Origin: an uncultured Faecalibacterium sp.
GTDB lineage: Bacteria > Bacillota > Clostridia > Oscillospirales > Acutalibacteraceae
DNA length: 64,000 nucleotides
Direction of reading: 5' to 3'
Assembly (NCBI GenBank): GCA_964480405.1
Contig: CAYZOU010000005.1
Span: forward strand, 39,117 to 103,116
Below the pieces are notes generated by a model, which was given only the letters and a program-made list of their open reading frames with translations, ran no database searches and was not told the DNA's origin. Both the position numbers and the translations under genes were made by a program. The first letter of the stretch is position 1. Each line of letters begins with the position of its first letter. Shown here in pieces: positions 2,297-63,397 of the stretch.

Positions 2297-2998
2297 TCAC
2301 CATTCTATCTTGTCAACCGAAAGAGGTGTGTCATTGACAGCTATCTGTGTCACTCTTCCGCTTCTCATAGTGATTATCTTATCCGCCATGGGAGCTAATG
2401 CCTGGTTATGCGTTATAAGCACAACCGTCATACCCGTCTCGTGGCAGGTATCCTGTAAAAGCTTCAATATTTGCTTTCCCGTGTTATAGTCAAGAGCGCC
2501 TGTTGGCTCATCGCAAAGAAGCAATTTCGGATTCTTCGCTAAGGCTCTTGCAATAGAGACTCTCTGCTGTTCGCCGCCCGAAAGCTGCGACGGGAAGTTA
2601 TCGCATCTGTCCGCAAGTCCGACCTTTCTGAGCATTCTCGCAGGGTCAACACTTCTCGGTGTCAGCTGAGTTGCAAGCTCGACATTTTCAAGCGCCGTAA
2701 GATTTTGAACAAGGTTATAAAACTGAAAAACAAAGCCGACGTCGCAACGCCTGTATTCGACAAGTCGCTTCTCATCGAACGAGGTTATAAGCTCACCGTC
2801 AACTCTGATTCTGCCGTCGTTGCACTCGTCCATACCTCCGAGCATATTAAGCACTGTCGTTTTGCCTGCGCCCGACGTACCGACGATAAGACAAAATTCG
2901 CCTTGATCAATATCAAAACTGACTCCGTCGGCGGCATTTATTGATATTTCGCCCATTTTGTACTTTTTATAAACGTCTCTAAATTCTATAAAAGCCAT
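2297..2998 (-). CDS. ABC transporter ATP-binding protein (MacB/LolD-like)
   Basis: Walker [10 protein letters not shown], signature [15 protein letters not shown] and Walker [13 protein letters not shown] are present. The permease gene follows. Confidence 0.92.
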
Positions 2999-3038
2999 AA
3001 TATTACCGTTCCTTATATATGTAATTTATGTTGTCCTT

Positions 3039-3063
3039 GCTATACTATTATATATAGTATAGC
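3039..3063. repeat. Perfect 9-bp inverted repeat (GCTATACTA-N7-TAGTATAGC) between tdk and the ABC operon
   Basis: Read directly from the sequence. The AT-rich palindrome overlaps -10-like hexamers. It could be an operator or a hairpin. Confidence 0.5.
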
Positions 3064-3110
3064 TGTAATAATGAATCAGCCGAAATACACGTTATATCCG
3101 TATCCACGCA

Positions 3111-3677
3111 CTACGCCTGCTTATCCGGTCCGAGGTTGCCCTCTCTCCAATGCTTCCTGCAAAGCGAGGTATACTTTTCATTAGCGCCAAGCACTACCTG
3201 TTCGCCCTGCTTGATTATGCCGTTTTCATCGAATCTTGCGTTCCATATAGCCTTTTTTCCGCACCAGCAGATCGTTTTAACTTCTTCGATGGTATCCGCC
3301 CACGCCAAAAGCCATTGACTGCCCGGAAACAAATCACCCTTGAAGTCAGCCCGAAGTCCGTAGCAGACTACGGGTACATTAAGATCGTCGACGATATGGA
3401 CAAGAGTTTCAACTTCCTCTTTCGTTAAAAACTGCGCCTCATCGACGATAAGGCAGTCGGACTTTTTCACCTGCTCCAAATCAAGCTCATGAAAAAGCAC
3501 ACATTCACTCTCAAGTCCGCAACGTGAATATATTCTGTGAGTTCCGTTTCTCGTGTCAACGGCGGGCTTTGCGATTATGACGTGCTGTCCTCTTTCTTCG
3601 TAGTTATACTTGACCATGAGCGCATTGGCGGTTTTGCTCGACCCCATTGCGCCGTATCTGAAATATAGCTTTGCCAT
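3111..3677 (-). CDS. tdk: Thymidine kinase
   Basis: P-loop GAMGSSKT is present, with a C-terminal zinc-ribbon pattern (CWCGKK...SLCRKHW). Length is typical and the RBS is GGGGGGAG. Confidence 0.93.
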   Translation of the reverse strand: MAKLYFRYGAMGSSKTANALMVKYNYEERGQHVIIAKPAVDTRNGTHRIYSRCGLESECVLFHELDLEQVKKSDCLIVDEAQFLTKEEVETLVHIVDDLNVPVVCYGLRADFKGDLFPGSQWLLAWADTIEEVKTICWCGKKAIWNARFDENGIIKQGEQVVLGANEKYTSLCRKHWREGNLGPDKQA

Positions 3678-3691
3678 GGCTCCCCCCTAAA

Positions 3692-4234
3692 TTAGTCGTC
3701 CTGATTAAAGGTCTCTTTATAAAGCACCTCTTTGGTGTCTGTGTCTCTGATAATGACCGTGCAATGCTGATCCTTGCGGTCATTTTGGGTATAGCTTTGA
3801 TAGACAAGACAGCTTTGACCGACAAGACTCACCATCAGCGGACTTGTCGAATCCTTTTCATAGTCCTCTCTGACTACGTCTATTTTCATTTCGCTGAAGT
3901 CTTTATTTCTCTCGATATCTTTTATGTACGGATAGTCTGTATCTGAATTCATAAGTCCGTATACGTTTTCAATAACAGCCACGCCGATCTTATACATCAA
4001 GATATCATAGTCGTTATCTTCTATTTCGACTGATATCAGTCCGTTCTTCTTGTCGTATTCGGCGCTTTTAAATCCGTTCTTTTCAGCGTAGCCGTCGAGA
4101 TCCTCAAGCTCCGCTTCGGACAGACTTGAAGCCGAGATATCAATTCTCACCTTTCCGTCTTTCTTGCCGCAACCGAGCATAAGACAACTGAGCATAACCG
4201 TAAGAGCCATAATTACCGCCAATGATTTTTTCAT
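3692..4234 (-). CDS. Lipoprotein, function unknown
   Basis: Signal peptide plus lipobox (MKKSLAVIMALTVMLSCLMLGC). I prefer the start at 4234, with GGAGGG 6 nt upstream. The longer ORF-track N-terminus is encoded by the adjacent tandem repeat. Confidence 0.7.
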   Translation of the reverse strand: MKKSLAVIMALTVMLSCLMLGCGKKDGKVRIDISASSLSEAELEDLDGYAEKNGFKSAEYDKKNGLISVEIEDNDYDILMYKIGVAVIENVYGLMNSDTDYPYIKDIERNKDFSEMKIDVVREDYEKDSTSPLMVSLVGQSCLVYQSYTQNDRKDQHCTVIIRDTDTKEVLYKETFNQDD

Positions 4235-4250
4235 ATTCATCCCTCCGAAA

Positions 4251-4815
4251 TGTTCTCCGAAACACACCAAATCTATGATTTAGGCTGAGTTTCGTGAGGT
4301 TATTATTACACAAATTCCGGCGTATGCCATAAAATAGCGGCGTTAAGCCGCTTTACCTTAGCGAATTTGTGTAACAATGTTCTCCGAAACACACCAAATC
4401 TATGATTTGGGCTGAGTTTCGTGAGGTTATTATTACACAAATTCCGGCGTATGCCATAAAATAGCGGCGTTAAGCCGCTTTACCTTAGCGAATTTGTGTA
4501 ACAATGTTCTCCGAAACACACCAAATCTATGATTTGGGCTGAGTTTCGTGAGGTTATTATTACACAAATTCCGGCGTATGCCATAAAATAGCGGCGTTAA
4601 GCCGCTTTACCTCAGCGAATTTGTGTAACAATGTTCTCCGAAAGTCCCCAAATCTTCGATTTGGTTGGACTTTCGTGAGGTTATTATTACGCAAATTCCG
4701 GCGTATGCCATAAAATAGCGGCGTTAAGCCGCTTTACCTCAGCGAATTTGTGTAACAATGTTCTCCGAAAGTCCCCAAATCTTCGATTTGGTTGGACTTT
4801 CGTGAGGTTATTATA
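4251..4815 (-). repeat. Tandem array, about 4.4 copies of a 127-bp structured unit (same family as 61591-61971, opposite strand)
   Basis: Unit starts (tgttctccgaaa) fall at 4251, 4378, 4505, 4632 and 4759, an exact 127-bp period. Each unit holds a long bulged hairpin plus a 12-bp outer stem (ttacacaaattc/gaatttgtgtaa) enclosing agcggc-gttaa-gccgct. Confidence 0.95.
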
Positions 4816-5033
4816 CCACACATATCAAGAAAAAGCCATAACTTCAGATAATACTTTTATGATAGTTTATCAGACAAATTCGTTTATGCTGTTAAGCAAC
4901 TGTTAAAGTTTAGCGATATATGAAGCCGTGCCCCAAAAGGAATACGGCGGTCGGTGGGTGTTCTGTATTATATGTGTCCGTATAGTTACTCACAGTGCTT
5001 TGTTTTGGCTTTGACTTGATTGTTGCAGCGAGC

Positions 5034-5063
5034 AAAAACTCCAAGCCTTTCGGCTTGGAGTTT
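5034..5063 (-). terminator. Intrinsic terminator after tRNA-Leu
   Basis: Hairpin ctccaagcc-tttc-ggcttggag is flanked by A/T tracts. Confidence 0.8.
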
Positions 5064-5148
5064 TGGTGCATCTGACAGGAATCGAACCTGCACGTCTTTC
5101 GACAATGGATCCTAAATCCATCGTGTCTACCAATTCCACCACAGATGC
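5064..5148 (-). tRNA. tRNA-Leu (anticodon TAG), encoded CCA
   Basis: The reverse complement folds by hand into a cloverleaf. Acceptor stem is GCATCTG/CAGATGC and the anticodon stem ATGGA/TCCAT carries loop TTTAGGA. There is a long variable arm TGTCGAAAGACGT, T-loop TTCGATT and a 3' ACCA. Confidence 0.93.
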
Positions 5149-6871: not shown

Positions 6872-7999
6872 TCATTGTGTCGCTTTCTTAGTGTCGTTCT
6901 TTGAAGATGTTTTGTTATTTTTCTTGGAAGTGCTTTTTGTGGTACTTATAGTGCCTTCTTTGAAAAATGCTTTGGTGACACTTTTGAGATTTATCGTGCC
7001 CTCGGATTTGTTGTTTTCTTCTTCGAGCTTTGCGATTATCTCTTTAGCCATTTTGAGCTTTGACTCCATGTCGCTTTCAGAGCCGAAATCAAGCTTGATT
7101 TTTCCGTTATAGACCGCCGAAAGCAGGTTGATATCCGTGACATTTATTTCGGTCAGCTTCAGTCCGTTTTCGCTCGCTCTTGCGATTATGTCCTTTGCCG
7201 CCGCCAAGCTTTCGGGGGATTTCACCGTCAGTGTCGTTCCGGGCTTTGTGTTGAGCAGGTCTATGCCCTTGAGCAATATCGTGTCTCCCTTTTTCTCGCT
7301 TTTTTCCTCTAAGACCTTATCGTTGCCGTCAAGCAGGATATACTTTTTGCTTTTTTCTATTGAGTACACGGGAAGTGCTTCCGTTATTTCAAGCTCGACC
7401 CCCGAAGGAATATTTCTGACGACGTGAACACTTCCGACGTACGGCAAGGAAGCGGAAAGCGTTTGTGTAACATTTCCGGATGTGGTACGCCACAGGTTGT
7501 CGCCGAGATTCACACCCGATGCCTCGATTATTTGTTCTTGAGAATATCTTGTATCACCCGAAACGGTGATAGTCTCGATCTTGAAAAGCACGGTGAGCGA
7601 AAGCGCCGTGAGTATCGCAGCGGCGATAACGACAGTGAAGAAAAGCGTCTTTATGACATTTCTCTTGCGCTTCTTTCTTGCTTTTTCGGCGTATGCCTTG
7701 CGGCGCTCGTCATTTGAGCGAGTGTCGGCTTTCTTCTTATTCTTGGCGCTCTGCCTTCTTGCGCTTGTCTGTCCCCTTTTCTGTGAGGACGGCGCCGCTG
7801 TTTTTTTCGGTGGCGCTATGGGACGCTCTCTGTCGGCAGAAGTAAAGCTCCCCTGCTTTTTCGGTGCGTCATAAATATATTTTTCGCCCGTTATCCACTT
7901 GCGTCTTTCCTCGGCAAGCTGTTCGGCACGTCTTTTTTCATCGTTTATACTTTGATATCCGTTCCTTTGGTTTCCGTTATTTCTTTCCCAATCCTTCAT
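6872..7999 (-). CDS. ftsQ: Cell division protein FtsQ/DivIB-like with a long basic N-terminal extension
   Basis: Single TM (LFFTVVIAAAILTALSLTVLF) followed by a POTRA-like region (IETITVSGDTRYSQEQIIEASGV). It sits between murA and ftsZ. Confidence 0.8.
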   Translation of the reverse strand: MKDWERNNGNQRNGYQSINDEKRRAEQLAEERRKWITGEKYIYDAPKKQGSFTSADRERPIAPPKKTAAPSSQKRGQTSARRQSAKNKKKADTRSNDERRKAYAEKARKKRKRNVIKTLFFTVVIAAAILTALSLTVLFKIETITVSGDTRYSQEQIIEASGVNLGDNLWRTTSGNVTQTLSASLPYVGSVHVVRNIPSGVELEITEALPVYSIEKSKKYILLDGNDKVLEEKSEKKGDTILLKGIDLLNTKPGTTLTVKSPESLAAAKDIIARASENGLKLTEINVTDINLLSAVYNGKIKLDFGSESDMESKLKMAKEIIAKLEEENNKSEGTINLKSVTKAFFKEGTISTTKSTSKKNNKTSSKNDTKKATQ

Positions 8000-8002
8000 A
8001 TT

Positions 8003-9256
8003 TCAGCCTCGCTTGATATCAGCGCCTATGCTTTTGAGCGCCTTTTCTATTTTTTCATATCCTCTGTCGATATGATGGATCTCCGTTATCTCTGTCTGTC
8101 CCTCGGCTCTGAGCGCCGCAACTATCAATGCACCGCCGCCTCGAAGATCGGTCGCCTGTACCTTTGCGCCGTATAGCTTCTTCACTCCGTCAATGACAGC
8201 GACCTTATCCTCAATTCTGATCTTCGCTCCGAGCCTTAAAAGCTGGGGTACGTGTTTAAATCTCGATTCGAATATGTTCTCGACTATTACACTCGTTCCG
8301 CTTGCCTTTGTCGCCATTGCCATTACGGGCGCTTGCGCATCTGTCGGAAAGCCCGGATACGGCATGGTTCTGACGTTTCTTATCGGATTCAGTCCGTCCT
8401 TGACCCGTATTCTCAAAGAGTCCTTTCCGACATCAAGGCGACAGCCCGCCTGTTCAAAAACAGATATTACACTCTTGAGATGAAGCGGAATAATGTTTTC
8501 TATAAGCACGTCTCCTCCTGCCGAAGCGACACATGACATATATGTTGCGGCGGTTATTCTGTCGGGTATAACGCTGAATTCACAGCCGTGAAGTCTCTCG
8601 ACACCGCATATGCTCACAGTGCCGTCTAAGCCTGTTTTTATATCGGCTCCGCACTTATTGAGAAATTCGACAAGCACCGCTATTTCGGGCTCTCTCGCCG
8701 CATTGTAAATGTTAGTCACGCCGTCGGATACGGCGCAGGCGAGGATTATATTTTCCGTCGCACCGACCGAGGGGAACGGCAGATTTATATTCGCTCCCGA
8801 AAGCTTTCCGCTTCGCTTACAGCTGAGCTTTCCGTAGCTTTCGTCTATCTCCGCTCCAAGCTCTCTCAAGGCTGACAAATGCAGATCTATAGGTCTAAGT
8901 CCGATCTCGCACCCACCGGGCGTATACATATCGGCATGACCCAATCTCGAAAGCACCGAGCCTAAAAAGACGATCGACGACCGCATCTCACGCATCAAAT
9001 TTTCGGGTATGTCGCAACGGGTCAGATGAGAGGGATCTATGAGCACCGTGTCGCCGTTTCTCTCGACATCGCAGCCCAAATATCTGAGTATTTTCACAGC
9101 CGCCGTGACATCGGTCAGCTGTGGGCAGTTATGTATCACGCACTCATCGCCCGTCAAAACCGTTGCCGCAAGAAGCGGCAGACAGCTGTTCTTTGAGCCG
9201 TGCACCTTTATTTTTCCCTCAAGTCTGTGTTCGCCTCTGACAATTATGCTTTCCAC
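8003..9256 (-). CDS. murA: UDP-N-acetylglucosamine 1-carboxyvinyltransferase
   Basis: 417 aa. Motifs GSKNSCLPLLAA and catalytic-loop GGCEIGLRPIDLH are present, in dcw context. Confidence 0.93.
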   Translation of the reverse strand: MESIIVRGEHRLEGKIKVHGSKNSCLPLLAATVLTGDECVIHNCPQLTDVTAAVKILRYLGCDVERNGDTVLIDPSHLTRCDIPENLMREMRSSIVFLGSVLSRLGHADMYTPGGCEIGLRPIDLHLSALRELGAEIDESYGKLSCKRSGKLSGANINLPFPSVGATENIILACAVSDGVTNIYNAAREPEIAVLVEFLNKCGADIKTGLDGTVSICGVERLHGCEFSVIPDRITAATYMSCVASAGGDVLIENIIPLHLKSVISVFEQAGCRLDVGKDSLRIRVKDGLNPIRNVRTMPYPGFPTDAQAPVMAMATKASGTSVIVENIFESRFKHVPQLLRLGAKIRIEDKVAVIDGVKKLYGAKVQATDLRGGGALIVAALRAEGQTEITEIHHIDRGYEKIEKALKSIGADIKRG

Positions 9257-23558: not shown

Positions 23559-23660
23559 CCCCGCCTGCGAAGCAGGCGGACGGCGTGAGCTTGTGTACTC
23601 CCGAGCGCGCGACGAAGGCGCTGTGCGAGCGGAGTGCCAAGGTCACGCCGCAGGAACTGA
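23559..23660 (+). repeat. GC-rich structured intergenic repeat, family A (copy with full nested stems)
   Basis: ccccgcctgc-gaa-gcaggcgg hairpin, then nested stems cggcgtga/tcacgccg, actcc/ggagt and agcgc/gcgct. Related copies are listed below. Confidence 0.85.
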
Positions 23661-29119: not shown

Positions 29120-29232
29120 AAAACAGAGTAGGTTTGAGTGCGTTAAGTTCCGTCTGAACGGGGAGTTGTCAGATGGCCGAAAACGGTTCAGCATAGTTGA
29201 GCCCTTGCGATACTCTTTCCGCATCCCGCTGT
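29120..29232 (+). promoter_or_regulatory. THF (tetrahydrofolate) riboswitch aptamer
   Basis: Conserved THF-motif blocks are recognisable: cAGAGUAGg...GUGCGUUAAGU...GAACGGGGAGUUG...CGAUACUCU...CCGCAUCCCGCUG. It lies upstream of a FolT-type ECF S-component gene. Confidence 0.85.
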
Positions 29233-29259
29233 AAACAAGAAAGATCGGACAAAATATCC

Positions 29260-29830: not shown

Positions 29831-29944
29831 ACCCGCCCGCGAAGCGGGCGGGGCGGGTGCGAAGCACCCCACGAGCACGAAGTGCGAGTGGGGTGACTGA
29901 GCAGCCGCCGTTGCGGGCGCGGTAGCGAAGCGAGTGCCCGCAGG
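29831..29944 (+). repeat. Family A-related GC-rich repeat (series of hairpins with GAA/GAAG loops)
   Basis: cccgcccgc-gaa-gcgggcggg, ggtgc-gaa-gcacc, ccccac...gtgggg and gcgggc...gcccgc. The first hairpin differs from other copies by compensated changes. Confidence 0.8.
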
Positions 29945-35023: not shown

Positions 35024-35120
35024 CCCCGCCTGCGAAGCAGGCGGACGGCGGCTGCATGTGTACCTGCGAGCGCAAGCGAAGCGCCGTGCGAGTAGGTGCC
35101 GGGCAGGCGCCGCAGGAGCT
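35024..35120 (+). repeat. Family A repeat copy
   Basis: ccccgcctgcgaagcaggcggacggcggctgc...tacctgcgagcg...gagtaggtgcc...gcaggcgccgcaggagc. The middle stem (acct/aggt) covaries with actcc/ggagt in other copies. Confidence 0.85.
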
Positions 35121-36168: not shown

Positions 36169-37323
36169 ATGGATTACAAGTTAAATATTTCATCACTCGA
36201 AACGCAAGTCGTCGAAGTCAAGCAGTTCGAGCATAACGTGACAAAGGTCTCGGCAACATTCAATGCCGAGGATATTCACGAGGATCTCATCGACCTCACG
36301 CCCTGCATTTTGCTGTCCTTCGGCGAGAAAATCACCAAGGATAACGGCTTGAGCTACATCATCGCCGACAACACAGCCGGCATAAGCTGGCGGATCTCAC
36401 AGGAGTGTACTCAAAAGGCGGGTACATATTTCGCCCAGTTCGCATTCATCGACAAGGACGAAACCATTAAGGCGTACACGGACAAATTCATTTTCAGGGT
36501 CTTGCCGTCGGTGGACATTCAAAAAGCGGTATTTGAATATAAGCCGAGATTCCTCGAAGCATTTTGGAACAAGATCGTCGACAAAATCAGCGAAATGCTG
36601 CCCAAAAAGGTCAGCGAGCTCGAAAACGATGCGGAGTATATCAGCACAACAAACACTCTGTCGGAATATGCTAAAACGACGGAGGTCAACAAGGCGCTCG
36701 AAAGCTACAGCACAACTGCGGAAATTGACGAAAAGCTCACCGACTATGCCACCCACGGCGACACTACCTCGGAAATATATGAATTTTACAGAACGAGGAA
36801 CGCTCTATACACTGCAACTTGCAATGTTCCGCACAAGGTCCAAGAGACGACAATGCTCGGTATGACATTCATTCCCGATTCGACATCGACCTACTTTCAG
36901 AGCATACTCATTGACAAGTTTTCCGATTTGACAAATTTCAAGGTCTCCGACTTTATAATAAACATTTACACAATGGAAATCAAATCAACGGTTTCCGCTA
37001 CTGTGAAGGTTGAAGTCAATGTCGGAAGCTCCGGGTCGGGCATTCTCGTCTTCACCAATGCCGATGTGCTTGTGAACGATGAGCCTTCAAATGCTTTCAT
37101 ATCTTATGAAAATGTGCTGGGCGTTCCCCGTGTCAGATACAGCAGGCTGAAGACAAACGTGGGCATCATTCCCATTTCTTCAAAGAGCAGATATCTCGGC
37201 ATAACCACTCCGCCGTATATAAAGAATATCAAGATCACGTTCGTGCCGACAGATCCGACAGCACCGACGACCAACTTTCTGTCCAGCTTTCAGATCAAGG
37301 TGTCGGGCAAAAAAATAAACTAA
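36169..37323 (+). CDS. Phage tail-fibre / baseplate (BppU-like) receptor-binding-type protein
   Basis: The N-terminal domain pattern resembles BppU_N-type domains, from my recollection. It is followed by the ELENDAEYIS motif and Y-x-x-T-x-E-[VI]-[ND] repeats typical of Firmicutes phage fibres. Holin and lysin genes follow. Start at 36169 with an AAAGGAG RBS. Confidence 0.5.
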   Translation: MDYKLNISSLETQVVEVKQFEHNVTKVSATFNAEDIHEDLIDLTPCILLSFGEKITKDNGLSYIIADNTAGISWRISQECTQKAGTYFAQFAFIDKDETIKAYTDKFIFRVLPSVDIQKAVFEYKPRFLEAFWNKIVDKISEMLPKKVSELENDAEYISTTNTLSEYAKTTEVNKALESYSTTAEIDEKLTDYATHGDTTSEIYEFYRTRNALYTATCNVPHKVQETTMLGMTFIPDSTSTYFQSILIDKFSDLTNFKVSDFIINIYTMEIKSTVSATVKVEVNVGSSGSGILVFTNADVLVNDEPSNAFISYENVLGVPRVRYSRLKTNVGIIPISSKSRYLGITTPPYIKNIKITFVPTDPTAPTTNFLSSFQIKVSGKKIN

Positions 37324-38486: not shown

Positions 38487-38552
38487 CCCGCCTGCGAAGC
38501 AGGCGGACGGTGAATTATACGCCACCGCACTCGACGAAGTCGGGTGCGGTGG
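38487..38552 (+). repeat. Family A repeat (leading hairpin plus a second hairpin), probably acting as the operon terminator
   Basis: cccgcctgc-gaa-gcaggcgg, then ccaccgcac...gtgcggtgg. Confidence 0.7.
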
Positions 38553-61451: not shown

Positions 61452-61536
61452 GCTCCTGCGCCGCCATCTCGGCACTCCACTCGCCTGCGGCTCGGGAGTG
61501 CACGAGCTGTCGCCGTCCGCCTGCTTCGCAGGCGGG
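61452..61536 (-). repeat. Family A repeat copy (reverse orientation)
   Basis: The reverse complement reads cccgcctgcgaagcaggcggacggcg...gtgcactcccgagc...gtggagtgccgag...gcgcaggagc. Confidence 0.85.
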
Positions 61537-61590
61537 TTTACGACAATCCGACGAAAATCTGTAAAACTATAGCATTTTTCTGATGTATAT

Positions 61591-61971
61591 GTTATAATAA
61601 CCTCACGAAACACAGCCCAAATCATAGATTTGGTGTGTTTCGGAGAACATTGTTACATAAATTCGCTGAGGTAATGCGGCTAAAGCCGCTATTTTATGGC
61701 ATTCGCCGGAATTTATGTTATAATAACCTCACGAAAGTCCAACCAAATCGAAGATTTGGGGACTTTCGGAGAACATTGTTACACAAACTCACAGAGGTAA
61801 AGTGGCGTAAACGCCACATTTAATGGCATACGCCGAGAGTTTGTGTTATAATAACCTCACGAAACACAGCCCAAATCATAGATTTGGTGTGTTTCGGAAA
61901 ACATTGTTACATAAATTCGCTGAGGTAAAGCGGCTAAAGCCGCTATTTTATGGCATTCGCCGGAATTTATG
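61591..61971 (+). repeat. Tandem array of 3 copies of the ~127-bp structured unit. Each carries an extended -10 (TGTTATAAT), a long hairpin and a terminator-like hairpin.
   Basis: Unit starts (gttataataacctcacgaaa) are at 61591, 61717 and 61845. Units 1 and 3 are nearly identical. Unit 2 differs at paired positions in all three stems. Confidence 0.95.
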
Positions 61972-62038
61972 TAAGAATACTCAAGCGGTGATCAGCTCAC
62001 CTAAACAAAAAATTGTATATCTTTTACGGAGGCAAATC

Positions 62039-63397
62039 ATGAATGTTATAATTGTCGGTTGCGGCAAAGTCGGATCTACACTTGCCGACCGACTCGTCAG
62101 TGAAGGACACGATGTCAGCGTTGTTGACGTTGACTCCGAGGCAGTTGATAAAGTAACGAGCAGACTTGATGTTCTCGGTGTTGTCGGCAGTGGCTCTATT
62201 CACCAAGTGCAAGTCGATGCAGGCGTTAAAAATGCCGACCTATTCATAGCCGTAACTCCGAGCGATGAATTAAATCTGCTCTGCTGTCTGATGGCTAAAA
62301 GATCGGCTTCATGTAGCACTATAGCACGAGTCAGAAATCCCGACTATCTCTCTGAACGGGCTTTCATCAAGGAACGTCTCGGACTTTCAAGCATCATCAA
62401 TCCGGAATTTGAAGCGGCAGCCGAGATAAGCAGGCTTTTCCGCATACCCTCGGCAATAGAGGTCGACACCTTCGCCGACGGTAAGGTCGAGCTTTTGAAA
62501 GCGGCTTTGACCGAGAACTCACCTATCGTCGGAAAATCAATAATGAACGCTTTAGGCAAGATCAGCGGTAAGGTTCTTATTTGCGCAGTCGAAAGAAACG
62601 GAGACGTTGTTATCCCGAGCGGATCGTTTATACTTAAAGCCGGAGACCAGATCTCATTCCTTACCTCAAGAAGTGAAAGAGAAACCGTGTTCAAAAAGAT
62701 CGGACTTGAAAGCGGCAAGATCAAAAGAGTTGTTATCGTCGGCGGCGGAAAGATATCTTATTATCTTGTCAGAATGCTCGCCGAGGAAGGCTTCAAGGTC
62801 AAGGTCATAGAAAGAGACAAAGAAAGATGTGAGGTACTCTCCGAGCTTCTGCCGTCATCGGTCACCATCATAAACGGCGACGGAACTGACCAACAGCTTT
62901 TGTATGAGGAGGACATTGACAGCGCCGACGGCTTCGCTTCGCTGACAGATGTTGACGAGGAAAACATCATGCTTTCAATGTTCATGACGAAAAATTCCAA
63001 GGCGAAGGTCGTCACAAAAATAAACAGACAGAATTTTTCCGAGCTTATTGAAAATCTTAATATAGGCTCGGTCATATATCCGAAATTCATAACAGCCGAA
63101 ACCATAGTCAGCTATGCGAGAGCGCTGAAGAACTCTCAGGGCAGTAATGTTCAGACACTTTATAACATCGTCGATGACAAGGTCGAAGCACTCGAATTCA
63201 GAGCTAAAAGCGAATCCGAGGTGACGGGTGTTCATCTGAGCGATCTCGAGCTTAAAGACAATCTTCTTATCTGTTGCATAAGCAGAAACGGCAAGACTGT
63301 TATTCCGAACGGTCTGACGACTATCGAAGTCGGAGACACGGTCGTAGTCGTTACAACACAGAAAGGTCTCAACGACCTTAGCGACATTTTGAAGTGA
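62039..63397 (+). CDS. trkA: Trk/Ktr potassium uptake system NAD-binding subunit TrkA
   Basis: Two RCK_N/RCK_C pairs (IIVGCGKVGSTLA; VVIVGGGKISYYL). Start at ATG 62039 with a GGAGG RBS. The ORF-track N-terminal extension reads through the tandem repeats. Confidence 0.92.
   Translation: MNVIIVGCGKVGSTLADRLVSEGHDVSVVDVDSEAVDKVTSRLDVLGVVGSGSIHQVQVDAGVKNADLFIAVTPSDELNLLCCLMAKRSASCSTIARVRNPDYLSERAFIKERLGLSSIINPEFEAAAEISRLFRIPSAIEVDTFADGKVELLKAALTENSPIVGKSIMNALGKISGKVLICAVERNGDVVIPSGSFILKAGDQISFLTSRSERETVFKKIGLESGKIKRVVIVGGGKISYYLVRMLAEEGFKVKVIERDKERCEVLSELLPSSVTIINGDGTDQQLLYEEDIDSADGFASLTDVDEENIMLSMFMTKNSKAKVVTKINRQNFSELIENLNIGSVIYPKFITAETIVSYARALKNSQGSNVQTLYNIVDDKVEALEFRAKSESEVTGVHLSDLELKDNLLICCISRNGKTVIPNGLTTIEVGDTVVVVTTQKGLNDLSDILK

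Follow-up and report, generated by a model that had tools for sequence, protein, structure and literature searches.

Why does a tandem array of structured 127-bp units stand directly in front of a lipoprotein gene in an uncultured Faecalibacterium sp., and what might it do there? The array lies in a stretch of 64,000 nucleotides (the window), and a preliminary description had read its hairpins as a functional RNA or DNA secondary structure rather than as slippage debris. We have found that structure is indeed conserved while sequence changes, both in the two arrays of the window and across 70 distinct copies drawn from many contigs. The position of the element is exact, directly 3' of the -10 hexamer of a promoter that was already there, and closely related strains differ in copy number and unit content. 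The repeats form an apparently undescribed hairpin-repeat family that is widespread in human-gut Clostridia. With middling confidence, we read the array as the local expansion of a mosaic repeat that is interspersed in Oscillospirales and resides in promoters (a "mobile promoter/leader cassette"). Oscillospirales are among the most abundant and least tractable bacteria of the human gut, and to our knowledge almost nothing is known about the regulation of their transcription. A repeat acting as proposed below would be a general source of strain-level expression differences.

Two arrays upstream of co-oriented genes

Array 1 occupies positions 4249..4819 and is read in gene sense on the minus strand, as four full units and one truncated unit with a period of 127 bp, the leftmost (native) -10 hexamer being counted in. 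TRF places it at 4249-4814 (period 127, 4.5 copies, 97% matches, 0 indels, score 978), and the anchor AACCTCACGAAA recurs at 127/127/127/127 spacing, in agreement with the 4.4 units of 127 bp first described. Model R1 matches at 4754-4819, 4627-4692, 4500-4565, 4373-4438 and 4246-4311 with 79-89 bits. The array is not a CRISPR locus, as had also been stated: the whole 127-bp unit repeats at 97% identity and unique spacers are absent, whereas CRISPR repeats are short (about 21-48 bp) and alternate with unique spacers of comparable length. It is flanked by a tRNA-Leu gene and the lipoprotein gene, with tdk after the latter, all on the minus strand. The array had been said to abut the RBS of a co-oriented lipoprotein gene, and its end is 2 nt from GGAGGG (4246-4241, minus). 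The lipoprotein coding sequence runs from the ATG at 4234 to 3692 on the same strand and belongs to no Pfam family; tdk (3677-3111, minus; Pfam TK) lies downstream of it. The spurious N-terminal extension noted for this gene was also recovered, in that a mechanical ORF of 3692-4270 with a TTG start runs 12 codons into the truncated unit.

Array 2 (61588..61979; 3.1 units, period 126-128 bp by TRF) is the reverse complement relative to array 1, and its gene sense is the plus strand. Its hairpin-A segments lie at 61589-61654, 61715-61780 and 61843-61908 (plus; model R1, 82-90 bits). The hexamers of its extended -10 boxes, TGTTATAAT, are at 61593-61598, 61719-61724 and 61847-61852 (plus; 10/12 with TG in a promoter scan). 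A last, weaker box, TGTAAGAAT, at 61970-61978 (plus) stands 60 nt upstream of the ATG of trkA, the gene served by this array (62039..63397, plus; Pfam TrkA_N and TrkA_C). In related contigs (gene tables of L002 and L138), trkH follows trkA. Since array 1 precedes the minus-strand lipoprotein gene and array 2 the plus-strand trkA, both are read in the sense of the downstream gene. Within the 64 kb, a profile search and covariance model R1 with filters off returned no copies beyond the eight in the arrays. A weak R1 match at 36950-37014 (E = 0.31) was considered as an extra solo copy and rejected, as it lies inside an ORF.

The region is housekeeping chromosome, with ftsQ, ftsZ, ruvABC and a THF riboswitch, and the nearest named relatives of the window's RuvB come from MAGs labelled Acutalibacteraceae (96% identity) and Ruminococcaceae (90%), which places the host in Oscillospirales, class Clostridia. 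GC skew is mostly negative across the window with no sustained reversal, and the two arrays occupy opposite strands of one replichore.

Other features of the window were recorded alongside. The THF (tetrahydrofolate) riboswitch aptamer at 29122-29233 (plus) scores 66.5 bits against a gathering score of 36. The tRNA-Leu gene (5148-5064, minus), about 250 bp upstream of array 1, has a perfect TTGACA-17-TATAAT promoter (5190-5162) and a terminator hairpin at about 5030-5065. A second repeat family, the GC-rich hairpin CCGCCTGC-TTCG-GCAGGCGG, occupies five sites against 0.02 expected by chance (23561-23579, 29833-29851, 35026-35044, 38488-38506 and 61517-61535, the last just upstream of array 2). 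Similar hairpins are present in the ftsZ/tRNA-Leu spacer, and this GC-rich TTCG-loop family looks like REP-like or terminator hairpins.

Unit anatomy and covariation of hairpin A

Each unit opens with an extended -10 box TRTGnTATAAT (TGTTATAAT or TGTAATAAT in the window) placed 7 nt before hairpin A, and the general order of a unit is hairpin A, linker, one to three GC hairpins and a terminal extended -10 box. Hairpin A is a bulged structure of 37 nt: a 9-bp stem and a 7-bp stem (CCAAATC/GATTTGG), set apart by a 2-nt bulge in the 5' arm, carry a 3-nt loop. In computed folds it is lengthened by CTC/GAG and AAT/ATT pairs across an AAC/AAC internal loop. Folds and covariation place its five copies in array 1 at 4802-4766, 4675-4639, 4548-4512, 4421-4385 and 4294-4258 on the minus strand, and it begins about 1 nt past the expected transcription start. 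The native -10 box of the lipoprotein gene, TATAAT at 4810..4815 (minus) with TGTGG before it, is common to relatives without the element. Four further extended boxes are borne by the units themselves (4302..4688, minus; TGTAATAAT or CGTAATAAT), as identified by promoter scan and family-wide conservation. Their hexamers lie at 4688-4683, 4561-4556, 4434-4429 and 4307-4302, each with ATGGCA 17 nt upstream; in the promoter scan they match the consensus at 9/12 positions, and all but one have TG before the -10.

A terminator scan and folds of the B domain revealed four terminator-like hairpins, AGCGGC-TTAAC-GCCGCT with ATTTTAT behind each (4733-4717, 4606-4590, 4479-4463 and 4352-4336, minus). 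They sit within this domain, whose closing stem is ATTGTTACACAAATTC / GAATTTGTGTAATAAT. The preliminary description had reported an inner hairpin, agcggc-gttaa-gccgct, and a 12-bp outer stem; the former is present at 4336-4352 and the latter is formed by ttacacaaattc (4307-4318) and gaatttgtgtaa (4363-4374). The outer stem forms between the linker, ATTGTTACAC, and the -10 region that follows, of which the linker is the inverted complement; one G.T pair in it is conserved, and the linker covaries with the N of TGnTATAAT. The stem encloses the GC hairpin with its ATTTTAT and a small GGC/GCC hairpin, and the next -10 box follows. Throughout the family, domain B ranges from 42 to 91 nt with a variable number of GC hairpins, and it is always closed by pairing between the linker and the downstream -10 box. 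RNAalifold over mixed unit types gave no usable consensus for this domain because MAFFT misaligns the differing B types. Units fold far below shuffled sequences on either strand (z = -4.9 to -8.2). The preliminary description had missed the -10 box at each unit boundary, the linker/-10 nature of the outer stem, the interspersed family and the strain-variable copy number.

One promoter-like and one terminator-like site recur in each window unit in consensus scans, and the array region holds 9 and 8 of them against 4.0 and 1.8 expected; the start sites and terminators assigned to the units are purely consensus matches. A transcript of about 90 nt per unit had been envisaged. The window's unit type is consistent with this, having the GC hairpin and ATTTTAT about 92 nt downstream of the promoter-like site, but most other members lack such an arrangement, the T-run after the GC hairpin being absent in most unit types. 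Units with a period of about 87 bp (L076, L126, L071) have CTAAAT at their internal boundaries. As CTAAAT makes a poor -10 box, the rule of one promoter per unit does not hold for the whole family. A small ORF (type I: GGAG-N8-ATG, about 21 codons into the next -10 box) was rejected as a conserved peptide, since its start is absent in other types and indels shift the frame among close copies.

Two forms of hairpin A occur in array 1, CGAAA-GTCC..GGAC-TTTCG and CGAAA-CTCA..TGTG-TTTCG in gene sense, and these had been described as a block swap in which pairing is kept. Both forms are real, but the CTCA/TGTG form of array 1 has one mismatch, T.T in gene sense and A.A on the plus strand. The fully paired forms are GTCC/GGAC and CACA/TGTG, the latter perfect in array 2 only. 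The GTCC form had further been equated with unit 2 of array 2. This holds for hairpin A, which is identical from the preceding AACCTC to ...GTTACACAAA, but the remainder of the unit differs.

Covariation, which had been put forward as a check on the structure, was scored in an alignment of 70 distinct copies of hairpin A (alignment A1). Paired cells amount to 93.2%, and eight pairs (121 cells) are changed on both sides, with a covariation score that was reached by 0/500 shuffles. As a control, the partners were slid by 1-3 columns, and pairing fell to 28-50%. The signal comes from columns 23-26/46-49 and 29-31/43-45, and bases fixed by the search pattern cannot contribute to it. The base of the stem also changes with compensation in array-neighbour copies, for example TGCGGT/ACCGCA in L062. 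Unpaired features are conserved as well: the bulged A is found in 69/70 copies, loop A38 in 70/70 and the 2-nt bulge in every copy. The stem is thus not simply corrected towards a perfect palindrome, and the conservation of these features argues against mere mechanical symmetrisation. The wobble count (21 G.T against 37 A.C cells) favours neither strand.

Occurrence, insertion point and copy number of the family

A metagenome scan recovered at least 120 contigs with relatives, almost all from the human gut. Hairpin A is mostly solo at a locus and at times arrayed, with periods of 81-129 bp, and the same anatomy is found at dozens of unrelated promoters across different Oscillospirales families. 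The sequence (T)RTGnTATAAT-AA precedes 68/70 distinct copies of hairpin A, and a second such box ends the unit. Each hexamer position matches TATAAT in 57-69 of the 70 copies, and the preceding TG has its T in 54 and its G in 59; only three nucleotides of the extended box pair in the hairpin. Because arrays combine different A and B variants (e.g. L126), the family is a mosaic. The comparison set consists mostly of short-read metagenome contigs, with breaks or possible chimeras at repeats, and the copy number of the window is given as assembled. Short-read contigs often end within the element, and both window loci end contigs in Logan assemblies. Such breaks, together with mechanical ORF calls that extend into the repeat, make the family a practical nuisance.

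When species-representative genomes were scanned with a strict pattern, they yielded one true relative (L003) and four chance matches, the window's own genome not being among them. L003 is an uncultured Clostridia MAG with a single hairpin A that bears compensatory changes. In the window, the Rfam 15 gathering threshold was passed only by the THF riboswitch and a tRNA; on the array, at E up to 10, only chance microRNA matches of at most 20 bits were returned. Among 14 loci spanning all unit types, only a tRNA passed. A known RNA family was accordingly rejected, no Rfam family reaching the gathering threshold on the element. No relative of the array was present in 50,697 phage and 72,556 plasmid records (blastn, distant mode), and viral contigs gave 0 pattern matches; a phage or plasmid origin was rejected on the strength of these searches. 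Literature searches with conserved strings returned unrelated primer matches only.

In L003 (1319-1445) and L085 (about 7866-8010), hairpin A is followed by a strong intrinsic terminator and by no gene. The L003 copy has a poor -10 box, and its neighbour encodes a small protein with a SHARERMRERG-like motif. These two copies are the best candidates for stand-alone small RNAs.

The preliminary description had raised the matter of positional bias relative to genes, and this bias is strong. In 43/53 distinct loci, a co-oriented ORF of at least 100 aa starts no more than 330 nt away, and in three more loci such an ORF follows a spurious antisense one. Between the last -10 box and the start codon there are 18-46 nt, a normal distance for a promoter. 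A -35-like hexamer (at least 4/6 at 16-18 nt) is present in 31/72 unique left flanks (43%), against 12.8% at random positions, and two unique left flanks carry a perfect TTGACA. The downstream genes are unrelated (nfo, response regulator, macro-domain protein, HAD hydrolase, nitroreductase, RadC, DegV, CopZ, permeases and lipoproteins), and no single functional class, of the kind that marks a riboswitch or gene-specific leader, was found among them.

Empty and filled alleles of the nfo promoter define the insertion point. The empty allele (L159/L160) reads ..tatggTATAAT|caatttaacg, or ..TTACGG-17-TATAAT|CAATTTAACG..ATG. In the filled allele (L161) the flanks are unchanged and the sequence is ..tatggTATAAT|(AACCTCACG...ATGATAAAAT)x2|caatttaacg, in a second rendering ..TATAAT|(AACCTCACG...AATTTATGATAAAAT)x2|CAATTTAACG. 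A more distant strain, L025, has one unit. The insert starts directly after the native hexamer and ends in its own, 0 bases are lost, and there is no target duplication between filled and empty alleles, the left hexamer being TATAAT and the right TAAAAT. As the terminal -10 box of the element replaces the native one before the native leader, the gene keeps a promoter at the same spacing. At the lipoprotein locus, the promoter of relatives L150-L158 is plain and element-free, with ..tgtgtgaTATAAT followed by a 38-nt leader, and relatives with a Tdk in the same 90% cluster read ..TGTGTGATATAAT, the 38-nt leader and TCGGAGGG. The junction in the window is ..tgtgtggTATAAT|AACCTCACG, and the array lies between the shared -10 box and the RBS, replacing the leader.

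The lipoprotein locus is also altered in other ways. In L149 (1308-1950) the leader is kept, but about 400 bp containing long inverted repeats (..ggggagtcgaaccctatacgg...tatagggttcgattcccctcag) stand in place of the promoter region, and this segment had no Rfam match. In L154 and L155 (228-1775 in both) and L157 (132-1697), the lipoprotein-tdk unit directly follows a large serine recombinase gene, which suggests an integrated element beside this locus.

Copy number, which the preliminary description had proposed comparing across strains, differs at both the lipoprotein and the trkA loci. The lipoprotein locus has 4.5 units in the window, 0.5 in L128/L136 and other variants in L129-L137, and other strains carry different A and B variants. 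L128, with an identical Tdk, has the promoter and one hairpin only, and the same junction recurs in L136 and related samples. The L128/L136 hairpin is a recombinant that joins a GTCC-type 5' arm to a TGTG-type 3' arm, with three pairs broken, and in L128 it is evidently the product of a deletion between unit 1 and unit 5. Because the broken hairpin persists before the lipoprotein gene in several samples, the hairpin is not essential there. At the trkA locus, the 3.1 units of the window compare with about 2 in L138, the junctions of L141-L148 are different, and strains vary in unit number, B type and junction with the leader.

L012 shares an identical unique left flank and one unit with L023, L040, L052 and L075, yet the gene that follows encodes a response regulator in L012 and, in the other four, a 325-aa hydrolase. 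Either elements at different loci have recombined, or the assembly is chimeric across the repeat.

Proposed action, alternatives and related elements

Judging from sequence and position, the repeat most likely acts on transcription of the neighboring gene. If every unit-borne box fires, each unit would add a promoter, and the resulting transcript would open with the stable 5'-terminal hairpin A, which may affect mRNA stability or processing. In Firmicutes, a 5'-terminal hairpin of this kind is known to protect mRNAs against 5'-dependent decay. In the window's unit type, the GC hairpin and T-run could terminate some of the transcription that arrives from upstream, directly ahead of the next promoter. 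Recombination between repeated boxes or units would multiply and remove units, and the array would then constitute a variable promoter/leader dosage device. Spread to new promoters may use the consensus box of about 11 nt either as homology (template switching) or as a target; template switching at this box would account for precise junctions, fixed orientation and head-to-tail arrays. A bolder version, which we consider doubtful, is that the repeats are a new class of mobile non-coding element that targets sigma-A promoters, integrating between -10 and +1 and regenerating the promoter with its own box. Hairpin A would then be the recognition structure (ssDNA or RNA) for a putative trans-acting enzyme or protein, and the variable arrays would be heritable, reversible expression switches in abundant human-gut Oscillospirales. 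If insertion at the -10 is enzyme-driven, it would represent a new target specificity for mobile DNA.

The units might instead be tandem small-RNA genes, each made up of an extended -10 box, a 5' hairpin, a conserved single-stranded GAGAACAUUG... stretch and an intrinsic terminator, and yielding a trans-acting RNA of about 92 nt to which gene proximity is incidental. Every window unit does have a promoter-like site with the GC hairpin and ATTTTAT about 92 nt on, the linker sequence is nearly invariant, and some solo copies precede a terminator and not a gene (L003, L085). We nevertheless find this unlikely, as the terminator is missing in most unit types, the linker pairs with the next -10 region and hence is not free, and about 46/53 loci lie 20-50 nt before a co-oriented gene with the last -10 at promoter distance. 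The conservation of unpaired bases alongside covariation (bulged A in 69/70, A38 in 70/70 and the 2-nt bulge in every copy) would suit a cis-acting leader RNA on which a global trans factor acts, be it an RNA-binding protein, a processing nuclease or a processive antitermination system. Hairpin A, with an invariant base, bulges and an ANA loop, would then be the binding site, and arrays would be multi-site leaders. The location of hairpin A at the extreme 5' end of the predicted transcript and the existence of arrays without internal promoters point the same way. This explanation is quite improbable in view of the tolerance of a broken hairpin (L128, L136), the wobble counts, which give no RNA strand signal, the lack of an Rfam family match and the absence of a common theme among the genes served; we also know of no partner protein.

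At the level of DNA, the repeat could be a non-autonomous mobile element with ssDNA hairpins recognised by an HUH/Y1 transposase (IS200/IS605-derived or REP-like) and inserting 3' of TATAAT, its promoter effects being by-products. We give this little credence, although it agrees with the precise insertion 3' of a fixed hexamer without target duplication or terminal inverted repeats, with subterminal imperfect hairpins at both ends and with pairing maintained equally on both strands. The right end of the element resembles the target, which would also explain the head-to-tail arrays, and IS200-like tnpA genes are present in these communities (L035). No associated transposase was found, however, in 1.03 Mb of loci, which gave one match (tblastn with an approximate query sequence, hence a weak negative), and a 6-nt target accounts less well than promoter function for the extended TRTGn box and the -35 enrichment. 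The arrays also occupy opposite strands of one replichore, unlike the lagging-strand bias of IS608, a comparison of mild weight at n=2. A neutral product of slippage or duplication, with palindrome symmetry arising from hairpin-templated repair (quasipalindrome template switching) and not from selection, appears highly improbable. Compensatory change in DNA palindromes can arise mechanically, as is established for quasipalindromes, and unstable copy number and degenerate copies (L129-L135, second unit of L161) are in keeping with neutrality. Against this, the same anatomy recurs at dozens of unrelated promoters in different Oscillospirales families, bulges and loop are conserved and not corrected, promoter boxes are conserved, and orientation and distance relative to genes are strongly biased.

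L035 carries a frameshifted IS200-like Y1 transposase gene (2786-3219, minus) about 380 nt upstream of a solo element, and the left end of this IS200 includes AATAATAACCTCC, a sequence similar to the beginning of the repeat unit. The association was treated as coincidence, since the same locus in L084, from another sample, has no match within the 580 nt upstream that it covers.

The closest known systems to the promoter-resident mosaic repeat are Correia elements, ERIC, REPIN and putative mobile promoters, from all of which it differs in junction, unit, arrays and host group. Correia elements (CREE) are bounded by terminal inverted repeats of 26 bp and duplicate a TA target, whereas the present family does neither, its ends sharing only the direct -10 box. 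It inserts exactly 3' of the -10 hexamer, consists of two-domain mosaic units in head-to-tail arrays and occurs in another phylum. The Correia elements of Neisseria are described as small non-coding interspersed hairpin repeats that can create promoters at their ends and that alter adjacent-gene expression and RNA processing (PMC2649163). Gene-facing promoter elements of this kind were found at the ends of the present family as consensus matches, a terminal TRTGnTA(T/A)AAT standing 18-46 nt before starts.

With the REP/BIME/REPIN sequences of proteobacteria, the family shares imperfect palindromes, conserved bulges, mosaics of variant units and linkers, and occasional clustering. REPs are about 35 bp long, lie mostly at 3' ends or in intergenic regions in alternating orientation and are tied to RAYT transposases, whereas the family of the window is head-to-tail and promoter-resident, has units of 87-129 bp and showed no associated transposase in 1.03 Mb of loci. 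Like miniature elements derived from IS200/IS605, it inserts 3' of a short target without duplication or terminal inverted repeats and has subterminal hairpins, but what it targets is a promoter box, the 1.03 Mb of loci yielded no cognate tnpA, and the two arrays give no hint of a replication strand bias (n=2). The arrays also resemble the ToxI arrays of type III toxin-antitoxin systems, in which head-to-tail structured units lie directly upstream of a co-oriented gene. A ToxI unit measures about 36 nt, and the gene behind the array encodes a ToxN-family toxin; in type III arrays generally, repeats of about 34-45 nt are followed by a ToxN, CptN or TenpN toxin gene. The units here have a period of 127 bp, most copies are solo, and the downstream genes are unrelated housekeeping genes, in the window a lipoprotein gene without Pfam family, tdk and trkA. 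Stabiliser hairpins in the ermC and aprE leaders of Firmicutes are likewise stem-loops a few nt from the 5' end, as unit-borne promoters would yield, but these are single-gene features and not a repeated family.

Correia elements, ERIC and REPIN have been discussed as promoter-carrying repeats, and putative mobile promoters have been defined by Matus-Garcia, Nijveen and van Passel (2012) as similar upstream sequences on non-paralogous genes of one genome (PMC3575422). Many families of these promoters exist, with function and mobility unknown and most outside Rfam (PMC3575422). That class is operational and has no anatomy, whereas structure, insertion point, empty sites and array behaviour are defined here. 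Both arrays of the window fall within it at a level of at least 80% identity over at least 50 nt before non-paralogous genes of one genome, the shared hairpin-A segments of the lipoprotein and trkA arrays being identical or nearly so over more than 60 nt.
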